From: a virus
Taxonomy: Duplodnaviria > Heunggongvirae > Uroviricota > Caudoviricetes
IMG/VR virus record: IMGVR_UViG_2529293040_000020
Direction: 5' to 3' (one strand)
Length of the DNA stretch: 34,620 nt
The notes under the pieces were generated by a model. The model saw nothing but the letters and a program-made list of their open reading frames with translations. It made no database searches and was not told the origin of the DNA. The position numbers and the translations under genes were made by a program. Shown here piece by piece: positions 3,627 through 24,957 of this stretch; within the stretch, counting starts at the first letter, position 1, and every line of letters begins with the position of its first letter.

Positions 3627-4194
3627 TATCGCGTCCTCAACAATGAATTTTGTGATGCAGTGCCTGGTGCCTCCAGGTGACGTTAACCAGTTAACAATTA
3701 ACGCCGGATACAGAGAATCCACCCATAACACTGTTTTTGGTTTTAACTGTTCCGCGTGCGCTCAGCCGCATTCACCACATCACAAAATTCACTTTAAAAA
3801 GGGCGGCAGAGCAGTCACGGAGTAAAACTGATACCGCCAAACGTCACCAGAAAATTGATAACAGAGGGCGTTGCAGCGGGGTTGTCACTTAAGCGTATGG
3901 TCAACCTGACAACCCGGTGTCCTCAACGGGGGAAGGAATAACCCCGCCATACTTACCGCCGCGCCATTTCGCGGATTGCCACAACCGGAAGCGCACGGTC
4001 GACGAAAATTTAACGACAGGCTATCTATGAACCAGCTACCTCGCCGTGCGCTTTCGCGTTATGGTCTGACTTTTCAGGGAAATATCCTTTCAGTAAACTG
4101 TCAGTGCCGGATGCTCACCCGTGTCCGGCGCACGCACTCCACCTCATCCGTGGAGAACTCCTTAATTACCAACCTTAGCTTCGTTGGTTAGCTA

Positions 4195-12255: not shown

Positions 12256-12509
12256 CTATGAATTATTATATTGTAAAGTAATCAGGTAAGATATGTTAGA
12301 CAGTGAGACTATTGCCTTACAGAATTCATTATTCTTATGGATCGCCTTTCTGACTGATTTCATATTGGCGGGGTAACGGGAGTTAAGTAGAATGGCTGCG
12401 GGTGCTTGAGGCTATCTGTCTCAGGCATGAACACCAAAGGCAGATAGAGAAAAGCCCCAGTTAACATTACGCGTCCTGCAAGACGCTTAACATTAATCTG
12501 AGGCCAATT

Positions 12510-13595
12510 TCATGCTAGACACATGTAGGTTAGCCTCTTACGTGCCGGAAGGCAAGGAGATGTATGGGTCCACCACATATTGCAATTTTTATTCTCTTTT
12601 AAAATATATTCCACGGGCGTCATTAGTGCGAGCGCCTTGTGGGGCTTTTGCTGTTATACAGCACCAGATATTCCGCCAGCTTCTGGTTAAATAGCGCCAG
12701 ATCTTCAAAGAGTAAAATCTCATTAAATTCAATAAACTGCTCTCTTAACGTCCGGTTAAAACGTTCACAGATAGCGTTCATTTTGGCGTGTAGGGATAGG
12801 TCCAGAGGTGTTTGATAGCGGCTTCCTGCAGCGTTTTGTCGAAGTTTCCCAGGAACTCTTTTCCGCTATCTGTGATTATCTGGCTGATACCGACCGGGAA
12901 CAACCGGGCTGCGCGGCTGAAGAAGTGATTGACGATATCACTGTTGAGTGACGGCACAGCCAGCGCCAGCGCGTAATTGCTGCATTCGTCGATCATGGTG
13001 ATGACATAGCGACGCAGTTCGCCCATTCTGAGCTCAATGGCGTCCATCCCAATGAGCTCACCTGTCTTTACCGGGCGGTAGTGCTTTGGCCTGCGGGGTT
13101 TGGCAGACCGCTTTTTGACAAGCAGTGCCTTCCCCCGCGATCCCAGACGCACAGGTATCATCCGCATTTTATCATGTGCGGCAGCGATCATTCTGCCGAT
13201 GGTGGAAACACTCGGACAGGCCAGATAGCGCTGTTCGCACCAGGGCTTCAGGCGAACAAAAATCTGCTCTTTACCGAGGTTCGGCAGCTCTGTCCTGAGG
13301 CGTCGAATCTCTTTCAGCACATCGGGATGCCAGTGTTTTTTCGTCGCACCAGAGGTGCCTTACTGTGCGGGATTAGCCCCTCAGGTCCTTCCTTGTTCAG
13401 TAACTGACGCCACCAGTAAAGCGTGCGGCAGGACACGCCAAAGGCTTCAGAAGCTGCAGAAATACCGTGTTTATCCCAGAAGTGCAGAGCCTTCATTCTC
13501 ATTGTTGCTATATCAGCCATCACTGAAAGCCTCAACGCATAATCGGCCGTTTGGTAGTACTTAGGATAGCCAACCATCAGATGCTGCATTTGCAT
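12510..13595 (-). mobile_element. IS481-like DDE (rve) transposase gene with at least three frame disruptions; IS ends not defined
   Basis: N-terminal HTH (ALHFWDKHGISAASEAFGVSCRTLYWWRQLL), DDE core (KHYRPVKTGELIGMDAIE...ITDSGKEF...MNAICERFNRTLREQ), C-terminus PHKALALMTPVEYILKENK; shifts at T6 13336-13341, near 12785 and near 12600. Confidence 0.5.
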
Positions 13596-14038: not shown

Positions 14039-14275
14039 ATGATGAACATCGAAGAACTGCGTAAAATTTTTTGTGAAGATGGCCTCTATGCTGTGTGCGT
14101 TGAAAATGGAAATCTTGTTAGTCATTACCGCATTATGTGTTTGCGAAAGAATGGGGCTGCGTTAATTAATTTTGTGGATGGTCGAGTGACAGACGGATTT
14201 ATCTTGCGCGAAGGTGAGTTTGTCACTTCATTACAGGCACTGAAAGAGATCGGAATAAAAGCAGGCTTTTCGTAA
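14039..14275 (+). CDS. Hypothetical small protein whose last codons are replaced by the IS66 insertion
   Basis: ORF MMNIEELRKIFCEDGLYAVCVENG...; stop codon is supplied by the IS left end; without the IS the frame would read ...KAGFSAFAEE*. Confidence 0.4.
   Translation: MMNIEELRKIFCEDGLYAVCVENGNLVSHYRIMCLRKNGAALINFVDGRVTDGFILREGEFVTSLQALKEIGIKAGFS
14264..14271. repeat. Left copy of the 8-bp target site duplication GGCTTTTC of the IS66-family element
   Basis: Identical 8-mer directly abuts both ends of the element. Confidence 0.75.
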
Positions 14276-14324
14276 CCGGCTCATTTAAACCGTCTGGTCT
14301 GTTTCCTCCGGCTCTACAAAAATA

Positions 14325-15001
14325 ATGTCCATCATTTTTAATGGACACTATCGTATGAAACACCGGACCTGGATCACTGAAGCTTTACGTCTTCACTTTG
14401 AAGAACATTTACCCCGGGTTGTGGCCGGGCGTCGCCTGGGTGTACCAAAATCAACAGTTTGTAGTATGTTCGTGCGCTTTCGGAGAGCTGGCCTTTCGTG
14501 GCCTTTGCCCGCAGGCATGTCGGAGCAGGAACTTGATGCCTGCCTTTACGGACAATTTTCCACGGTACCAGTCGTACGTCCTGAAAGCACCGTTATATCC
14601 GAAGCCCCCGTGGTAAAAAAACGTCCCCGGCGGCCCAACTTCCCTTATGAGTTTAAAATCGCCTTAGTGGAGCAGTCACTGCAGCCCGGAGCCTGTGTGG
14701 CGCAGATCGCCCGGGAAAACGGAATCAACGATAACCTGCTCTTCAACTGGCGCCATCAATACCGGAAAGGTGGCCTGCTGCCTTCCGGAAAAATATGCCG
14801 GCACTGCTTCCCGTGACGTTAACGCCGGAGCCGGATAATAAAATCCCGGCCCCCGCACAGGAACCAGAGCAGATAAATACACCGTCCGACAGTCTGTGTT
14901 GTGAGCTGGTTCTGCCGGCCGGAACTCTCAGGCTTAAAGGTAAACTGACGCCGGCGTTATTACAGACACTTATCCGCGAAATAAAAGGGAGCAGCCACTG
15001 A
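14325..15001 (+). CDS. tnpA: IS66 accessory protein TnpA (HTH), read in two frames with the change near 14795-14816
   Basis: KRPRRPNFPYEFKIALVEQSLQPGACVAQIARENGINDNLLFNWRHQYRKG (transposase_8-type HTH) then other frame PALLPVTLTPEP...; A7 run at 14613-14619. Confidence 0.5.
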
Positions 15002-15348
15002 TGATATCTCTCCCTGCAGGTTCGCGTATCTGGCTGGTTGCAGGTATCACCGATATGCGAAATGGCTTTAACGGCCTGGCATCAAAAGTTCAGAACGTCC
15101 TGAAGGATGACCCGTTCTCCGGACACCTGTTCATCTTCCGCGGACGCCGGGGTGACCAGATAAAAGTGTTGTGGGCTGACAGTGACGGACTGTGCCTCTT
15201 CACCAAACGCCTGGAGCGGGGCCGCTTCGTCTGGCCAGTCACCCGTGACGGCAAGGTGCACCTTACTCCGGCTCAGTTATCCATGCTTCTTGAAGGTATC
15301 AACTGGAAGCACCCGAAACGAACGGAACGCGCTGGAATCCGCATATAA
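15001..15348 (+). CDS. tnpB: IS66 Orf2-like protein TnpB
   Basis: MISLPAGSRIWLVAGITDMRNGFNGLASKVQNVLKDDPFSGHLFIFRGRRGDQIKVLWADSDGLCLFTKRLERGRFVWP is the characteristic IS66 TnpB sequence. Confidence 0.85.
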   Translation: MISLPAGSRIWLVAGITDMRNGFNGLASKVQNVLKDDPFSGHLFIFRGRRGDQIKVLWADSDGLCLFTKRLERGRFVWPVTRDGKVHLTPAQLSMLLEGINWKHPKRTERAGIRI

Positions 15349-15367
15349 CCCGTTGTAAAGTGAGGAT

Positions 15368-16939
15368 ATGGACACCTCACTTGCTCATGAGAACGCCCGC
15401 CTGCGGGCACTGTTGCAGACGCAACAGGACACCATCCGCCAGATGGCTGAATACAACCGCCTGCTCTCACAGCGGGTGGCGGCTTATGCTTCCGAAATCA
15501 ACCGGCTGAAGGCGCTGGTTGCGAAACTGCAACGTATGCAGTTCGGTAAAAGCTCAGAAAAACTTCGTGCAAAAACCGAACGGCAGATACAGGAAGCACA
15601 GGAGCGAATCAGCGCACTTCAGGAAGAAATGGCGGAAACGCTGGGTGAGCAATATGACCCGGTACTGCCATCCGCCCTGCGCCAGTCTTCAGCCCGTAAA
15701 CCGTTACCGGCCTCACTTCCCCGTGAAACCCGGGTTATCCGGCCGGAAGAGGAATGCTGTCCTGCCTGTGGTGGTGAACTCAGTTCTCTGGGATGTGATG
15801 TGTCAGAGCAACTGGAGCTTATCAGCAGCGCCTTTAAGGTTATCGAAACACAACGTCCGAAACAGGCCTGTTGCCGGTGCGACCATATCGTGCAGGCACC
15901 AGTACCTTCAAAACCCATTGCACGCAGTTATGCCGGAGCGGGGCTTCTGGCCCATGTTGTCACCGGGAAATATGCAGACCATCTGCCGTTATACCGCCAG
16001 TCAGAAATATACCGTCGTCAGGGCGTGGAGCTGAGCCGTGCCACACTGGGGCGCTGGACAGGTGCTGTTGCTGAACTGCTGGAGCCGCTGTATGACGTCC
16101 TGCGCCAGTATGTGCTGATGCCCGGTAAAGTCCATGCTGATGATATCCCCGTCCCGGTCCAGGAGCCGGGCAGCGGTAAAACCCGGACAGCCCGGCTGTG
16201 GGTCTACGTCCGTGATGACCGTAACGCCGGTTCACAGATGCCCCCGGAGGTCTGGTTCGCGTACAGTCCGGACCGGAAAGGTATCCATCCACAAAATCAC
16301 CTGGCCGGTTACAGCGGTGTGCTTCAGGCCGATGCTTACGGTGGTTACCGGGCGTTATACGAATCCGGCAGAATAACGGAAGCCGCGTGTATGGCTCATG
16401 CCCGGAGAAAAATCCACGATGTGCATGCAAGAGCGCCCACCTACATCACCACGGAAGCCCTGCAGCGTATCGGTGAACTGTATGCCATCGAGGCAGAGGT
16501 CCGGTGCTGTTCAGCAGAACAGCGTCTGGCGGCAAGAAAAGCCAGAGCCGCGCCACTGATGCAGTCACTGTATGACTGGATACAGCAACAGATGAAAACA
16601 CTGTCGCGTCACTCAGATACGGCAAAAGCGTTCGCATACCTGCTGAAACAGTGGGATGCACTGAACGTGTACTGCAGTAATGGCTGGGTGGAAATCGACA
16701 ACAACATCGCAGAGAACGCCTTACGGGGAGTGGCCGTAGGCCGGAAAAACTGGATGTTCGCGGGTTCCGACAGCGGTGGTGAACATGCGGCGGTGTTGTA
16801 CTCGCTGATCGGCACATGCCGTCTGAACAATGTGGAGCCAGAAAAGTGGCTGCGTTACGTCATTGAACATATCCAGGACTGGCCGGCAAACCGGGTACGC
16901 GATCTGTTGCCCTGGAAAGTTGATCTGAGCTCTCAGTAA
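15368..16939 (+). CDS. tnpC: IS66-family transposase TnpC
   Basis: 523 aa; N-terminal coiled coil, zinc finger CPACGGEL...CRCDH, DDE region typical of IS66 TnpC. Confidence 0.85.
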
Positions 16940-16969
16940 ATATCAATACGGTTCTGACGAGTCGCTTAC

Positions 16970-19504: not shown

Positions 19505-19627
19505 ATGCCTGAAAAACGGCACAGAACATTAAACGCGCTGGTAGTTGTGAATACTGGTCTTTCAGCTTGCTGGCTTTTTCGACAAGAGGTATTGGTATGT
19601 CACGTTAACCGGAAAAGGGAAAAAAGC

Positions 19628-19825
19628 ATGCTAAAACAGCAGGATATGACCGAAACCGCCAGAGTGGTGTTTAATGAATTAAGCGTCACCGAACCGGCGA
19701 CCGTCGGGGAAATTGCGCAGAATACTTACCTTTCACGCGAACGCTGCCAGTTAATACTGACTCAGCTTGTTATGGCGGGTCTGGCAGATTATCAGTTCGG
19801 TTGTTACAGACGCCTTCCGCAGTGA
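19628..19825 (+). CDS. Small hypothetical protein (65 aa)
   Basis: ORF MLKQQDMTETARVVFNELSVTEPATVGEIAQNTYLSRERCQLILTQLVMAGLADYQ (helix-turn-helix-like); G/A-rich RBS before the ATG. Confidence 0.35.
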   Translation: MLKQQDMTETARVVFNELSVTEPATVGEIAQNTYLSRERCQLILTQLVMAGLADYQFGCYRRLPQ

Positions 19826-19975
19826 AGGCTTTTTAATTTGTGGTAATGGGCGGCTGGTGGGTGTTAGCGGCACCTGCCAGCCATCTGCTCATGCGTTGGG
19901 GTCACAAGCAAACCTCAGGCCCATCTGCTTTGCGCAAAAGCGGTATGAGCCTATCAGAGAAGTGCTTATTGATCT

Positions 19976-21025
19976 ATGATTAATACTGTAAAAATATCCA
20001 GTTGTGAGTTAATCAACGCTGATTGCCTGGAATTTATCCAGACCTTACCGGAAAACTCTGTCGATCTGATAGTCACAGACCCGCCATACTTTAAAGTGAA
20101 GCCCGAGGGCTGGGATAACCAGTGGGAGGGCGACGATGATTACCTGAAATGGCTGGACCAGTGTCTGGCGCAGTTCTGGCGGGTACTGAAGCCTGCCGGA
20201 AGTCTTTACCTGTTCTGTGGTCATCGCCTGGCATCTGACACCGAAATCATGATGCGTGAGCGCTTTAATGTGCTGAACCACATTATCTGGGCGAAGCCGT
20301 CCGGACGCTGGAACGGGTGCAATAAGGAAAGTCTGCGGGCGTATTTTCCGGCAACAGAGCGCATTCTGTTTGCAGAACATTATCAGGGACCGTATCGCCC
20401 GAAAGATGATGGCTATGTGGCACAGGGGCGCGAGCTAAAACAGCACGTCATGGCCCCGCTGATTTCTTACTTTCGTGATGCGCGTAAATCACTGGGAATA
20501 ACGTCAAAACAGATAGCGGAAGCCACCGGAAAGAAAAACATGGCTTCGCACTGGTTTGGTACCAGTCAGTGGCAGTTACCGAACGAGGGTAATTACAACA
20601 AATTGCAGGCGTTGTTTGCGCGTGTTGCGGCAGAAAAACATCAGCGCGGGGAACTGGAAAAGCCACACCACCAGCTGGTCAGCACATACAGTGAGCTGAA
20701 CCGGCAGTATACGGAACTGCTGAGTGAATATAAAAATTTGCGGCGGTATTTCGGTGTGACGGCGCAGGTTCCGTACACCGATGTCTGGACGCATAAACCG
20801 GTGCAGTACTATCCAGGGAAACATCCGTGCGAAAAACCGGCAGAAATGCTGCAGCAGATAATCAACGCGAGCAGTCGTCCGGGAGACCTGGTTGCAGATT
20901 TTTTTATGGGTTCAGGTTCAACGGTAAAAGCGGCGATGGCACTGGGGCGTTGTGCGATTGGTGTTGAGCTGGAGACAGGACGTTTTGAACAGACAGTCAG
21001 GGAAGTTCAGGATTTAATCGTTTGA
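19976..21025 (+). CDS. Phage DNA methyltransferase (N6-adenine/N4-cytosine type)
   Basis: DPPY motif (LIVTDPPYFKV) and C-terminal AdoMet-binding motif (ADFFMGSGST); sits between Q and the tRNA cluster. Confidence 0.75.
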   Translation: MINTVKISSCELINADCLEFIQTLPENSVDLIVTDPPYFKVKPEGWDNQWEGDDDYLKWLDQCLAQFWRVLKPAGSLYLFCGHRLASDTEIMMRERFNVLNHIIWAKPSGRWNGCNKESLRAYFPATERILFAEHYQGPYRPKDDGYVAQGRELKQHVMAPLISYFRDARKSLGITSKQIAEATGKKNMASHWFGTSQWQLPNEGNYNKLQALFARVAAEKHQRGELEKPHHQLVSTYSELNRQYTELLSEYKNLRRYFGVTAQVPYTDVWTHKPVQYYPGKHPCEKPAEMLQQIINASSRPGDLVADFFMGSGSTVKAAMALGRCAIGVELETGRFEQTVREVQDLIV

Positions 21026-21074
21026 AACGGATGGGATTGCAGAATTAATTACGCACCATTATTATTCTGCTACC

Positions 21075-21150
21075 GGCCCTTTAGCTCAGTGGTGAGAGCG
21101 AGCGACTCATAATCGCCAGGTCGCTGGTTCAAATCCAGCAAGGGCCACCA
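21075..21150 (+). tRNA. ileZ: tRNA with CAU anticodon, Ile2 (lysidine) type, ileZ-like
   Basis: Cloverleaf by eye: acceptor ggccctt/aagggcc, D-arm gctc-agtggtga-gagc, anticodon loop ctCATaa, T-loop ttcaaat, 3' ACCA; close to E. coli ileX-type tRNA. Confidence 0.7.
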
Positions 21151-21159
21151 TCACATACC

Positions 21160-21229
21160 GCCATTAGCTCATCGGCAGAGAGCGTCAGCTTTCGAAACTG
21201 GCTGTGTGGGGCCCGGGTCCCCGATGGCA
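21160..21229 (+). tRNA. Degenerate tRNA-like element (possible anticodon UCG, non-canonical T-loop); may be a tRNA pseudogene
   Basis: Acceptor gccatta/cgatggc (one mismatch, one wobble), D-arm gctc-atcggcaga-gagc, loop tttcgaa; T-arm ggggcccgggtcccc lacks the TTCRA consensus. Confidence 0.3.
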
Positions 21230-21247
21230 ATCCATTATCTGCATTAT

Positions 21248-21324
21248 GCGTTGTTAGCTCAGCCGGACAGAGCAATTGCCTTCTAAGCAATCGGTCACTG
21301 GTTCGAATCCAGTACAACGCGCCA
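21248..21324 (+). tRNA. argO: tRNA-Arg (anticodon UCU)
   Basis: Acceptor gcgttgt/acaacgc, D-arm gctc-agccggaca-gagc, anticodon stem attgc/gcaat with loop ctTCTaa, T-loop ttcgaat, 3' GCCA. Confidence 0.75.
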
Positions 21325-21434
21325 TATTCATTCTTCCAGATTTCTTCCGGCAGAGCCTTATACTGGAATATACTTGGCTCAGGATATTGTTGAAAATATT
21401 ATATGTTTGTCAAAAATAAAAGTTCTGTTAAGTA

Positions 21435-21788
21435 TTGATTGAGTGTTTGTTATACGGTCTAATGGTTTTTTCAGTATTAAATATTTATCATTCATATGGT
21501 GTGGGTAGAGTGAATATTGATGAGGCGTCGGGGTGTTTCATCCTTAGGCAGCGTATTGATATAGTCAATGCAGCACGAGCAAAGGCCTTCAGCCGTTTGA
21601 CAGTTTTGTTCTGTACTCCTGATCGTCTTTCGGGAAGAGACGTTATTCTTCTGAATAGTGATGCTATACAGAGGGTTTGCGATGAGTTCATGGTTGCTAA
21701 TTCAGAATTATTTGCTCTTGTTCAGGAGTACAACAGAATAGCCAGGACCTGTGGTATGGATGAACTTCGGATTACTCATCTGGGGTAG
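21435..21788 (+). CDS. Hypothetical protein at the position stx occupies in Stx phages
   Basis: 117-aa ORF; no similarity to Stx A or B subunits by eye; start codon uncertain. Confidence 0.3.
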   Translation: MIECLLYGLMVFSVLNIYHSYGVGRVNIDEASGCFILRQRIDIVNAARAKAFSRLTVLFCTPDRLSGRDVILLNSDAIQRVCDEFMVANSELFALVQEYNRIARTCGMDELRITHLG

Positions 21789-22220
21789 ATACATATCTGG
21801 ATTATCACCTGTTACGGTAAAAAGTGATTGCTTACTGTTTTTGTGAATGGCATTGCAGCAGCCGGATAATGTCAGTGCTGGCTGACTGTGTACTGGTGGC
21901 GGGTGTGGTGGTTGTTGCTTTCCCGTTGCTGAAAAAGAAAACGCCAGACTGTTAGTCGGAGAAATTTTTAAATACTTCACAATTCAGGCGGTTGACTGTT
22001 GTCTGGTTTGCGGGGAGTTTGTTAAAAGAAACTGGCATGGTGAATCCACCTGTGCGGAGGGGCAATCAGCGAGTAGGTATATGGGATAATCGCGGATTCA
22101 GGTGCTGGTACTGAATTCACCGGGAGGCACCCGGCACCATGCAATGGCACATAGCGCCACTCTCCAGCCCCTCTCCGGAGGGGCTGTTTATATTGATTTT
22201 GTCAGATGTGAGTAAACTCC

Positions 22221-22556
22221 TTATGGACTTTGTTGTTTTAGTCCATAAGGACATATTTGCAGAGTGCAACGGTTATTAAAGCATTCATTCAATACGTTAT
22301 CTGTATTTGTAGGGCATTCCTGGCTGTTTTTGATTAAATTCCAGAATGTTTTATTGAATGGTACTACGTTGTAAATGGTTACAGGTAGCACTTTGTTATT
22401 GAGCATGATACCTGTGTGAGTCAGTGTAAATATACTTTCAGGAGGTAAGAAAGCATCCGATTGATACCAGATTATTAATTTTATTTTACTCCATATGACT
22501 GAAAAAGATATTCCGCATGATGGCTGGATAACTGTATCAATCACAATCCACTTCAT
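22221..22556 (-). CDS. Hypothetical AT-rich ORF (111 aa)
   Basis: ORF only; perfect 12-bp inverted repeat ccttatggact...agtccataagg at 22220-22252 at its 3' end. Confidence 0.25.
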
Positions 22557-22816
22557 TTAGTTTCCTTGTTTATGCCTTGCTGGTGATGTTCTGAAAAGTA
22601 TAAATGATATTTTTGATTGTAAACCATAGAGCAGAATTATTTTTCTGATGTTGTTTATTGTTTATTTAAATGCAGGGTGGTTTATATCTCGTCTTGTAGT
22701 TTATCCATGCATATCTGCTTGATGATGAGGTTTTTATTTAAGGTATGGTTTTGTGTTTTTTCTGTATTACATGTCAGGTATTTTAAAGAATTATTCTTCA
22801 GATGGTGGAAAGAACC

Positions 22817-24667
22817 ATGGCATTTAAACACTATGATGTTGTCAGGGCGGCGTCGCCGTCAGATCTTGCGGAAAAGCTGACACATAAACTGAAAGAGGGC
22901 TGGCAGCCGTTTGGTAGTCCGGTGGCCATAACCCCTTATACCCTGATGCAGGCGATTGCAGCAGAAGGTGATGTGGTCGTCAGTGGTGCAACTGAGCCAG
23001 AGTGGTACTACGTCATCGTACTGGCCGGGCAATCCAATGCCATGGCTTACGGTGAAGGGCTTCCGCTTCCGGATTCATACGATGCGCCCCATCCGCGCAT
23101 TAAGCAACTGGCCCGTCGTAACACAGTGACTCCCGGTGGTGAAGTATGCGTATTTAACGACATCATTCCTGCTGACCATTGTCTGCATGATGTTCAGGAT
23201 ATGAGTACGATTAACCATCCCCGGGCTGACCTGAGCAAAGGGCAGTACGGCTGTGTCGGACAGGGCTTACATATTGCCAAAAAACTGCTTCCGTATATCC
23301 CTAATAATGCGGGGATCCTGCTGGTACCATGCTGTCGTGGTGGTTCGGCATTCACCCAGGGCACGGAGGGGACATTCAGCGAGTCCACGGGGGCCAGTCA
23401 GGATTCGGCTCGCTGGGGAGTGGGTAAGCCGTTATATCAGGATCTGCTTTTCCGCACGAAGGCAGCATTGCAGAAAAACCCGAAAAACGTTTTGCTGGCG
23501 ATATGCTGGATGCAGGGGGAATTCGATATGACGAATGCCAGTTACGCCCAGCAGCCAGCAGCATTTCTTGCAATGGTACAGCAGTTCCGTGCTGACTTTG
23601 CCGGGCTGGCGGCGCAGTGTCACGGTGGAAGTCCGGCATCAGTCCCCTGGATTTGTGGCGACACGACATACGCGTGGAAACAAGAACACGGTACGCAATA
23701 TGAAGTGGTATATGGTGCATATAAAGGTAAAGAATCCCAGCAGATTTATTTTGTTCCCTTTATGACCGATGGTAGCGGAGTTAATACACCGACAAACAAC
23801 CCGTCAGAAGATCCTGATATTGCCGGGTCTGGTTATTACGGTTCGGCATCCCGAACGAACAAAAACTGGGTATCATCAAATCGCCCGACGCATTTCAGCT
23901 CATGGGCGCGTCGTGGCATTATTCCCGATCGTATGGCAACTGCTATTCTGAACGTAGCCGGTCGCACCTTAGCCTTCATTAGTGGTAAGGCACCGGAAAT
24001 CAAACCCTCGCCCGGCGGCGACACGCCATCGGGGCCGTCTGAAGATGCATCCGTACGCACAATCTCCCTGTTGCCGACAGCCGGAGATGCTGCTGCGCAG
24101 GGCTGGAGCATTAAGAATGGCGGAATTCAGTTGTCAGATGGTGTATTTAAGATCACCAAGCAGAGCAATAAAACCTGGTCCCTGATGCATCCGGTGGATG
24201 ACGCAATTACCCTGCTGACACAGGGCGGCAGACTGACCTGTAAGTTCCGCCTCTCAGGCGCACTGACCAACAATCAGTTCGGGCTGGGGATTTATCTGTA
24301 TACGGACGCTCCCGTTCCTGATGATGTGGCGATGACGGGTACTGGTAATCCGTTCCTGATGTCTTACTTCACTCAGACCACTGACGGCAGAGTGAATCTG
24401 ATGCATCACAGGAAAGCCGGAAACACGAAGCTGGGGGAGTTCGGCGATTACGGTAACGACTGGCAGACGCTGGAGCTGGTGTTCACCGCCGGCAGTGCCA
24501 CGGTTACTCCGAAACTGAATGGAGTGGCTGGCCCGGCATTCCAGGTTATAAAAGACAGTCTGACACTGGGACTGAATGCGCTGACGCTGACGGATGTTAC
24601 AAAAAATGCAGCGTATGGCGTTGAGATAGAAAGTCTGGTGCTGGAGATAAATGCACCGGCAGCATAA
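22817..24667 (+). CDS. nanS-p: Phage sialate O-acetylesterase NanS-p (DUF1737 + SGNH esterase + C-terminal domain)
   Basis: N-terminal MAFKHYDVVRAASPSDLAEKL (DUF1737-like); GQSNAMAYGEG esterase motif; position between the stx-equivalent locus and the lysis genes. Confidence 0.75.
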   Translation: MAFKHYDVVRAASPSDLAEKLTHKLKEGWQPFGSPVAITPYTLMQAIAAEGDVVVSGATEPEWYYVIVLAGQSNAMAYGEGLPLPDSYDAPHPRIKQLARRNTVTPGGEVCVFNDIIPADHCLHDVQDMSTINHPRADLSKGQYGCVGQGLHIAKKLLPYIPNNAGILLVPCCRGGSAFTQGTEGTFSESTGASQDSARWGVGKPLYQDLLFRTKAALQKNPKNVLLAICWMQGEFDMTNASYAQQPAAFLAMVQQFRADFAGLAAQCHGGSPASVPWICGDTTYAWKQEHGTQYEVVYGAYKGKESQQIYFVPFMTDGSGVNTPTNNPSEDPDIAGSGYYGSASRTNKNWVSSNRPTHFSSWARRGIIPDRMATAILNVAGRTLAFISGKAPEIKPSPGGDTPSGPSEDASVRTISLLPTAGDAAAQGWSIKNGGIQLSDGVFKITKQSNKTWSLMHPVDDAITLLTQGGRLTCKFRLSGALTNNQFGLGIYLYTDAPVPDDVAMTGTGNPFLMSYFTQTTDGRVNLMHHRKAGNTKLGEFGDYGNDWQTLELVFTAGSATVTPKLNGVAGPAFQVIKDSLTLGLNALTLTDVTKNAAYGVEIESLVLEINAPAA

Positions 24668-24703
24668 TAAAAAAAGCCAGCGCCCACTCTGAAGGACGCT
24701 GGC
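24667..24703 (-). terminator. Hairpin with adjacent A9/T9 tract after nanS-p; oriented as a minus-strand intrinsic terminator, possibly bidirectional
   Basis: aaaaaaaaa-gccagcg-cccactctgaagga-cgctggc. Confidence 0.35.
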
Positions 24704-24957
24704 TAAAACGGGTAGATGTACTTCACATGATACTTATACTTGGCAGTACATTTTCTGACAGACAGTGACGGATGTTGTCAAGATATTGTGTCATTTATAA
24801 CCTGAATCAGGGGTTGGCCGGAATGTTATCTGGCATTTTTAGCAGAGCCTGAATGCCATAATCACGGCTCCCGGCGTTGGCCGTCAGTGGGTGACACTGG
24901 CGGCTTTTTGTTTTCTTACTTTCATTTTCTGTCGGCGGTGACGGAGACATACATCAG

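Follow-up and report, generated by a model that had tools for sequence, protein, structure and literature searches.

The window, by which we mean the whole 34,620-nucleotide stretch of tailed-phage DNA analysed here (IMG/VR record IMGVR_UViG_2529293040_000020), contains between positions 21330 and 22816 a short interval flanked by a series of landmarks familiar from Stx-converting phages. To its left lies a DNA N6/N4 methyltransferase gene (19976-21025, + strand; PF01555, 152.6 bits), which is followed by a cluster of tRNAs. To its right is a 621-codon gene for a nanS-p type sialate O-acetylesterase (22802-24667, + strand; DUF1737, SASA and DUF6645 domains), named SASA family carbohydrate esterase by PGAP, with a lysis cassette encoding a class II holin, an RrrD lysozyme and Rz positioned 3' to it. 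The original prediction, made from the sequence without database searches, had recognized the methyltransferase, tRNAs, nanS-p and lysis genes as the landmarks of an Stx-phage backbone, and all of them were recovered by our searches. Upstream of the methyltransferase, and downstream of a Q-like DUF1133 gene, a small ORF (19505-19825, + strand) with weak similarity to winged-helix (TrmB/MarR) proteins ends at a terminator-like hairpin (19812-19829); a homolog in the Stx2k phage bears the annotation "TrmB family regulator".

The tRNA cluster, which had been described as ileZ/argN/argO, has two intact members and one degenerate one. The first is an ileZ-type tRNA with a CAU anticodon (Ile2; 21075-21150, + strand; detected by ARAGORN and by the Rfam tRNA model at 72.5 bits), which the PGAP annotation of Escherichia coli E2348/69 likewise gives as tRNA-Ile. 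The third is an argO-type tRNA-Arg with a UCU anticodon (21248-21324, + strand; ARAGORN and Rfam). Between them an argN-like remnant (21158-21231, + strand) scores only 22.2 bits against the Rfam tRNA gathering score of 29 and is not called by ARAGORN; its equivalent is an intact tRNA-Arg in CFT073 and in Stx phages, and had been listed as a tRNA in the 2009 annotation of E2348/69.

Within the interval itself the list of ORFs, together with a tRNA scan and a profile of base composition, confirmed the 117-aa ORF (21435-21788, + strand) and the minus-strand ORF (22221-22556) at the positions first reported, and the two are distinct in their affinities: profile searches of both proteins assigned the former to phrog_2873 and the latter to NF007393, the anti-adapter protein IraM family. 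The interval had been said to hold these two ORFs alone. We find two further elements between them, namely a short ORF of the DUF3927 family (21824-21955, + strand) and a small RNA of the STnc100 family (22006-22195, + strand). Two AT-rich stretches are also present. The first (21333-21509) forms the leader of the segment that follows the tRNAs; its initial part, 21333-21432, is unmatched among the loci compared and has sigma-70-like hexamers on the + strand at 21374-21402 and 21390-21417, as consensus matches alone. The second (22557-22801) comprises the promoter region of the minus-strand gene and the region upstream of nanS-p, and belongs to the right-hand part of the interval (22200-22800), in which the G+C content drops to about 31%.

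We found none of the stxA and stxB genes that define an Stx-converting lambdoid phage at their expected place between the Q gene and tRNAs on one side and the lysis cassette on the other. TBLASTN searches of the whole window with Stx1A/B, Stx2cA/B and Stx2kA returned chance matches alone (best E = 0.97), and BLASTN searches with the complete stx1 and stx2c cassettes recovered only their last ~28 nt, which match the window at the right-hand junction (21968-22005). The claims that neither ORF resembles an Stx subunit and that this is a toxin-free relative of Stx phages are therefore both correct.

Alignment to Stx prophages defines the limits of the toxin slot with some precision. The 3' end of the methyltransferase gene and the tRNAs show an 88.6% alignment to an Stx2a phage, in which the equivalents of 20924-21332 and 21977-22185 of the window flank stx2AB and the start of nanS-p aligns further to the right. 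Similarly, in phage 1717 (Stx2c) the segment 21037-21337 aligns over the tRNAs and the segment 21977-23950 is collinear across STnc100, an iraM gene and nanS-p. Homology with the Stx2a and Stx2c phages thus stops at 21332-21337 on the left side and, given these flanking alignments, the stxAB cassette of ~1366 bp corresponds in position to window 21338-21976 (639 bp) alone. The closest toxigenic counterparts, the Stx2c phages 1717 and 2851 (NC_011357, FM180578), share with the window the order Q, tRNAs, cassette, STnc100, IraM-family gene on the opposite strand, nanS-p and holin/endolysin/Rz, and are collinear with it at 68% across STnc100, iraM and nanS-p. They differ in their Q type and upstream genes, and in the cassette, which is stx2cAB (~1366 bp) in these phages and two other elements, the DUF3927 ORF and the conserved part of the 117-aa ORF (639 bp), in the window. 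As judged from these alignments, 21338-21976 is a cassette replacement between tRNA-Arg and STnc100 rather than the scar of an stx deletion. The limits of the swap are the 3' end of tRNA-Arg(UCU) on the left and a point ~30 nt upstream of STnc100 on the right. These conserved anchors would allow cassettes to be exchanged by homologous recombination, and either stx or the alternative cassette may have been the one that came in.

The minus-strand ORF (22221-22556, 111 codons) matches NF007393 with 162 bits against a cutoff of 121, over residues 1-110 of 111. Its predicted product is 62% identical to the K-12 IraM and identical at all 111 positions to a protein of the CFT073 potB-island prophage (WP_000871291.1), which has been characterized as IraL, an anti-adaptor that acts on RssB and thereby stabilizes RpoS (PMC4045071). 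The same study used an identity of at least 95% as its criterion for IraL, a level that the window protein reaches. Hence, by sequence identity the ORF is iraL, and its role in the RssB/RpoS pathway is predicted by transfer from the identical CFT073 protein. [quoted passage not shown] The K-12 iraM promoter could not be aligned with the region upstream of the window gene. The gene is likely to be transcribed in the lysogen by means of a dedicated promoter within the AT-rich spacer, where a promoter-like site is seen on the minus strand at 22664-22636. A PhoP-box-like sequence, TGTTTATTGTTTATTTA, is present nearby at 22652-22668 with one mismatch, and we do not regard it as evidence of regulation because the window has fewer such matches (5) than are expected in shuffled sequence (9). 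In the published RIL-seq data for E2348/69 the iraL mRNA (E2348C_1245) occurs in 11 Hfq-bound chimeras with Spot 42 (spf), and among the entries listed these were the only chimeras found for this locus; they hint at a catabolite-linked control of iraL by a small RNA.

Both ORFs were initially interpreted as a different cargo at the toxin locus, that is, as two parts of a single insertion that had displaced the toxin. This would be in line with their position between the tRNAs and nanS-p and with the lack of Stx-like features in either of them. However, 41 phage records gave TBLASTN matches to IraL at 72-74% identity, almost every one being a converting phage for Stx2c, Stx2a or Stx2k, and IraM-family genes stand beside stx2 at the same place and in the same orientation in phages 1717 and 2851 (Stx2c), in the Stx2a WGPS phages and in the Stx2k phage. 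The protein of 1717 and 2851 is 73.6% identical to that of the window, and the arrangement in 1717 and the Stx2k phage is exactly the one seen here, with the gene placed after STnc100 and ahead of nanS-p or the holin gene and encoded on the opposite strand. Moreover, the segment equivalent to stx is restricted to 21338-21976, and the two ORFs are separated by a small RNA that is common to Stx phages. A joint replacement of the toxin by both ORFs is accordingly an improbable reading, and the notion of a different cargo holds for the segment 21338-21976 and not for the minus-strand ORF. The occurrence of such genes at the same place beside stx2 in Stx2c, Stx2a and Stx2k phages shows iraL to be a moron in its own right, which is transcribed convergently, can coexist with stx and does not substitute for the toxin.

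The small RNA at 22006-22195 (+ strand), the right anchor of the exchangeable cassette, matches the STnc100 model (RF02076) over positions 1-206 with 123.6 bits (gathering score 47). Nine aligned copies support a multi-helix structure with a terminator hairpin, in which 8 of the 38 pairs display double-sided compensatory changes; the window copy has a single broken pair (A.G), in the first hairpin. A terminator scan located the intrinsic terminator at 22165-22186, and it is on this one hairpin that the small RNA and iraL converge. STnc100 has been reported 75 nt downstream of stx2 (PMC12370729), and we find it directly 3' of stx1B or stx2B in four Stx phages, representing Stx1, Stx2a, Stx2c and Stx2k. 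A 2026 preprint also relates the family to the PasD small RNAs of E2348/69 (bioRxiv 10.64898/2026.05.13.724894). These resemble the window RNA in their setting in the prophages PP2 and PP4, downstream of a DUF3927 gene and upstream of nanS-p or lysis genes, and we accordingly considered whether the window RNA might be PasD1 or PasD2. PasD1 and PasD2 map to PP4 and PP2, respectively, and both fall below the STnc100 gathering score, unlike the window copy, which is a true member of the family with a terminator; it is thus an STnc100 RNA and none of the five named Pas RNAs. No PP5 intergenic small RNA at the equivalent of 22006-22195 appears among the listed entries of the E2348/69 RIL-seq tables. 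By virtue of its family membership the RNA is probably an Hfq-associated regulator or else the 3' end of upstream transcripts. A 42-aa ORF on the minus strand (22022-22150), which PGAP treats as a partial pseudogene, has no family match better than E = 0.013 and is probably not a gene, as it lies antisense within the small RNA.

We next turn to the element that occupies the toxin slot proper. The 117-aa ORF exists as originally delineated, and its conserved core is a shorter gene of 92 codons that begins at a GTG at 21510 and ends at 21788 (+ strand; hereafter ORF92). ORF92 matches phrog_2873 over the full length of the profile (E = 1.8e-69) and has a conserved coding frame; no Pfam or NCBIfam family was matched by the 117-aa ORF. 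A divergent allele from another locus (L015), 62% identical to that of the window, aligns with it from position 21433 onward and is gapless over 279 nt, which is exactly the 92 codons from the GTG common to both. Upstream of this GTG the divergent allele contains in-frame stops and a 7-nt indel, which exclude the 117-aa start, and likewise a 108-aa alternative, as the conserved start. Taken together, the gapless 92 codons and the disrupted upstream region identify 21510-21788 as the conserved gene. In the comparison of the two alleles dN/dS is 0.26 in frame, as against 0.88-1.19 out of frame, and ORF92 is under purifying selection.

Certain features of the gene might nevertheless be taken to indicate that the ORF arose by chance in an AT-rich spacer or forms part of a regulatory RNA. 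The Shine-Dalgarno sequence before GTG 21510 is weak in the window, the protein lacks a Pfam or NCBIfam family, and PGAP annotates no such gene in any of the RefSeq genomes listed, E2348/69 and CFT073 included. Against this reading stand the frame-specific dN/dS, which is close to 1 in the other frames, the preservation of length in the 62%-identical allele, a good GGAG Shine-Dalgarno sequence in another allele (L019), and the existence of distant relatives of 91-106 aa with 21-39% identity that have conserved motifs in common. Further, AlphaFold2 models the protein confidently as a two-helix hairpin (pLDDT 88), and some GenBank genomes contain the exact 92-aa sequence as a "hypothetical protein". 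In light of this evidence we consider it very unlikely that ORF92 is not a gene.

Homologs of ORF92 are few: a set of 5.8 billion proteins contains 23 clusters, and 1.84 billion proteins searched exhaustively with a profile gave 20 representative clusters. Their position in lambdoid prophages is invariably 3' of Q, in many cases after a 241-aa AraC-like regulator and ahead of genes for a TerB-like protein (tciA), a DUF3927 protein (tciB) and a holin. At four such loci (L011, L015, L019 and L027) the same post-Q slot holds the homolog directly 3' of the regulator, which is AraC-like (HTH_18), and PGAP leaves both the homolog and ~1.8 kb beyond it unannotated. Prophages with this arrangement include those of LEE-negative STEC such as O91:H21, and the one O91:H21 STEC context inspected shows no stx at that locus. 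A TBLASTN search of 50,697 phage records likewise found no case of ORF92 together with stx, the sole match being mEp460_ev081. It had been foreseen that the ORFs of the interval might prove to be conserved genes of the backbone that coexist with stx in other phages; this is the case for the minus-strand ORF, and the 92-aa gene was found in no stx-carrying record among the 50,697 searched.

Clues to what ORF92 might do were sought in its predicted fold and its context. Foldseek searches of PDB and BFVD with the 92-aa model retrieved generic helical hairpins and nothing at E <= 0.001, the match to the TraM anti-activator having a TMq of 0.74 but an E-value of 0.65, and a PADLOC scan of the small ORFs for defense systems yielded nothing meaningful. 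We speculate that the product is a lysogenic-conversion or accessory protein that most likely binds a protein partner, which may be a regulator. The placement of homologs right after an AraC-like regulator, in conjunction with the loose fold resemblance to TraM-type anti-activators, raises a more specific idea, namely a lysogenic-conversion factor that acts as a partner or anti-activator of AraC-family virulence or acid-resistance regulators of the prophage or the host, with the window protein being an orphan that would act in trans. We regard this as a long shot.

The second element of the cassette, the DUF3927 ORF (21824-21955, + strand, 43 codons), matches PF13064 at profile positions 7-53 with 90.2 bits against a gathering score of 25, as well as the TciB-like phrog_1470. 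A full-length TciB of ~50 aa has two hydrophobic helices, of which the window ORF retains the second alone: in comparison with homologs of 50-54 aa, unrelated sequence stands in place of the N-terminal ~20 residues, the first transmembrane helix is lacking, and an in-frame stop codon occurs just upstream. It is hence a 5'-truncated remnant of tciB. Fuller cassettes elsewhere have the form (AraC-like)-ORF92-TerB/TciA-DUF3927/TciB-holin. Phage JLK-2012, which has tciA and tciB as its cargo, and related prophages resemble the window in housing their cargo in the slot after the Q-proximal tRNAs, and the 3' part of the DUF3927 gene and the 5' part of STnc100 are 87.8% identical between JLK-2012 and the window. 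The window differs from this type in that the TerB-like tciA is absent and tciB is without its first transmembrane helix. With tciA gone and the 5' part of tciB lost, the window cargo is a reduced derivative of an ORF92-tciA-tciB cassette.

The truncated DUF3927 gene, the missing tciA and the degenerate argN are all signs of decay, and repeated loss of stx from prophages has been suggested (bioRxiv 10.64898/2026.05.13.724894), so that one might view the interval as a deletion scar in which junk ORFs were left behind after a toxin once carried by the prophage was lost. Yet no nucleotide or protein similarity derived from stx is detectable, and ORF92, which is under purifying selection, comes from a family that has a conserved AraC-like/TerB/DUF3927 setting of its own. 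We therefore find it extremely unlikely that stx was ever deleted here; what has decayed is a different cargo, given the lack of stx similarity and the conserved cassette that is proper to the ORF92 family.

These observations can be combined in a single scheme, in which the interval is a mosaic of four independent modules: ORF92 (21510-21788), the tciB remnant (21824-21955), the STnc100 RNA with its terminator (22006-22195) and iraL on the opposite strand (22221-22556). The place of stxAB is taken by the first two alone, with STnc100 and iraL representing backbone or moron elements that are also found beside stx. Over its whole length the window matches PP5, the potC/potB prophage of EPEC O127:H6 E2348/69, at 99.6-99.9% identity (99.8% over 21000-22900), and the same interval in the potB-island prophage of the UPEC strain CFT073 shows 96.7% nucleotide identity and an identical IraL, differing from the window in its intact argN and truncated nanS-p. 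Of 5426 complete E. coli genomes, 863 contain at least 80% of the segment 21000-22900, and the reduced cassette is more widespread still, with the cargo segment in 1183 of the 5426, ST131 included; the ORF92 family is thus borne by about one fifth of complete E. coli genomes. We are confident that the interval is the late-operon cargo bay of a lambdoid prophage that lacks stx and is of a common type, represented by E2348/69 PP5 and the CFT073 potB island, and that the four modules are assembled in it as a mosaic.

In E. coli it is usual for lambdoid prophages to lack stx and to have other morons between Q and the lysis genes. The locus is an ordinary one that is already represented in the literature and databases, for the prophage type is common and its small RNA and iraL occur in toxin phages too; the prophage type, the iraL gene and the STnc100 family have all been published. 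What the comparison adds is a precise map in which the stx cassette is exchangeable between the anchors tRNA-Arg(UCU) and STnc100, the recognition that STnc100 and anti-adaptors of the iraL type move both in company with the toxin and in its absence, and the flagging of a conserved 92-aa gene that RefSeq annotation has missed.

Outside the interval, the window and PP5 differ chiefly by insertions and losses. An IS66-family insertion (14272-16969; ORFs at 14325-14816, 15001-15348 and 15368-16939) is present in the window only, the ISEc13 and IS200C insertion that PP5 has between nanS-p and the holin gene is absent from the window, and the head genes that PP5 has lost are retained. The PasC small RNA maps to about 24668-24720 on the minus strand, in antisense orientation right after the nanS-p stop codon and before the holin gene, a placement obtained by mapping coordinates from the E2348/69 RIL-seq tables (NC_011601 1290831-1290883, minus strand). 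Elsewhere in the prophage Rfam models identify a DicF small RNA (3801-3852, - strand; 76.7 bits) and a hok/sok antisense RNA (12400-12566, + strand; 112 bits).
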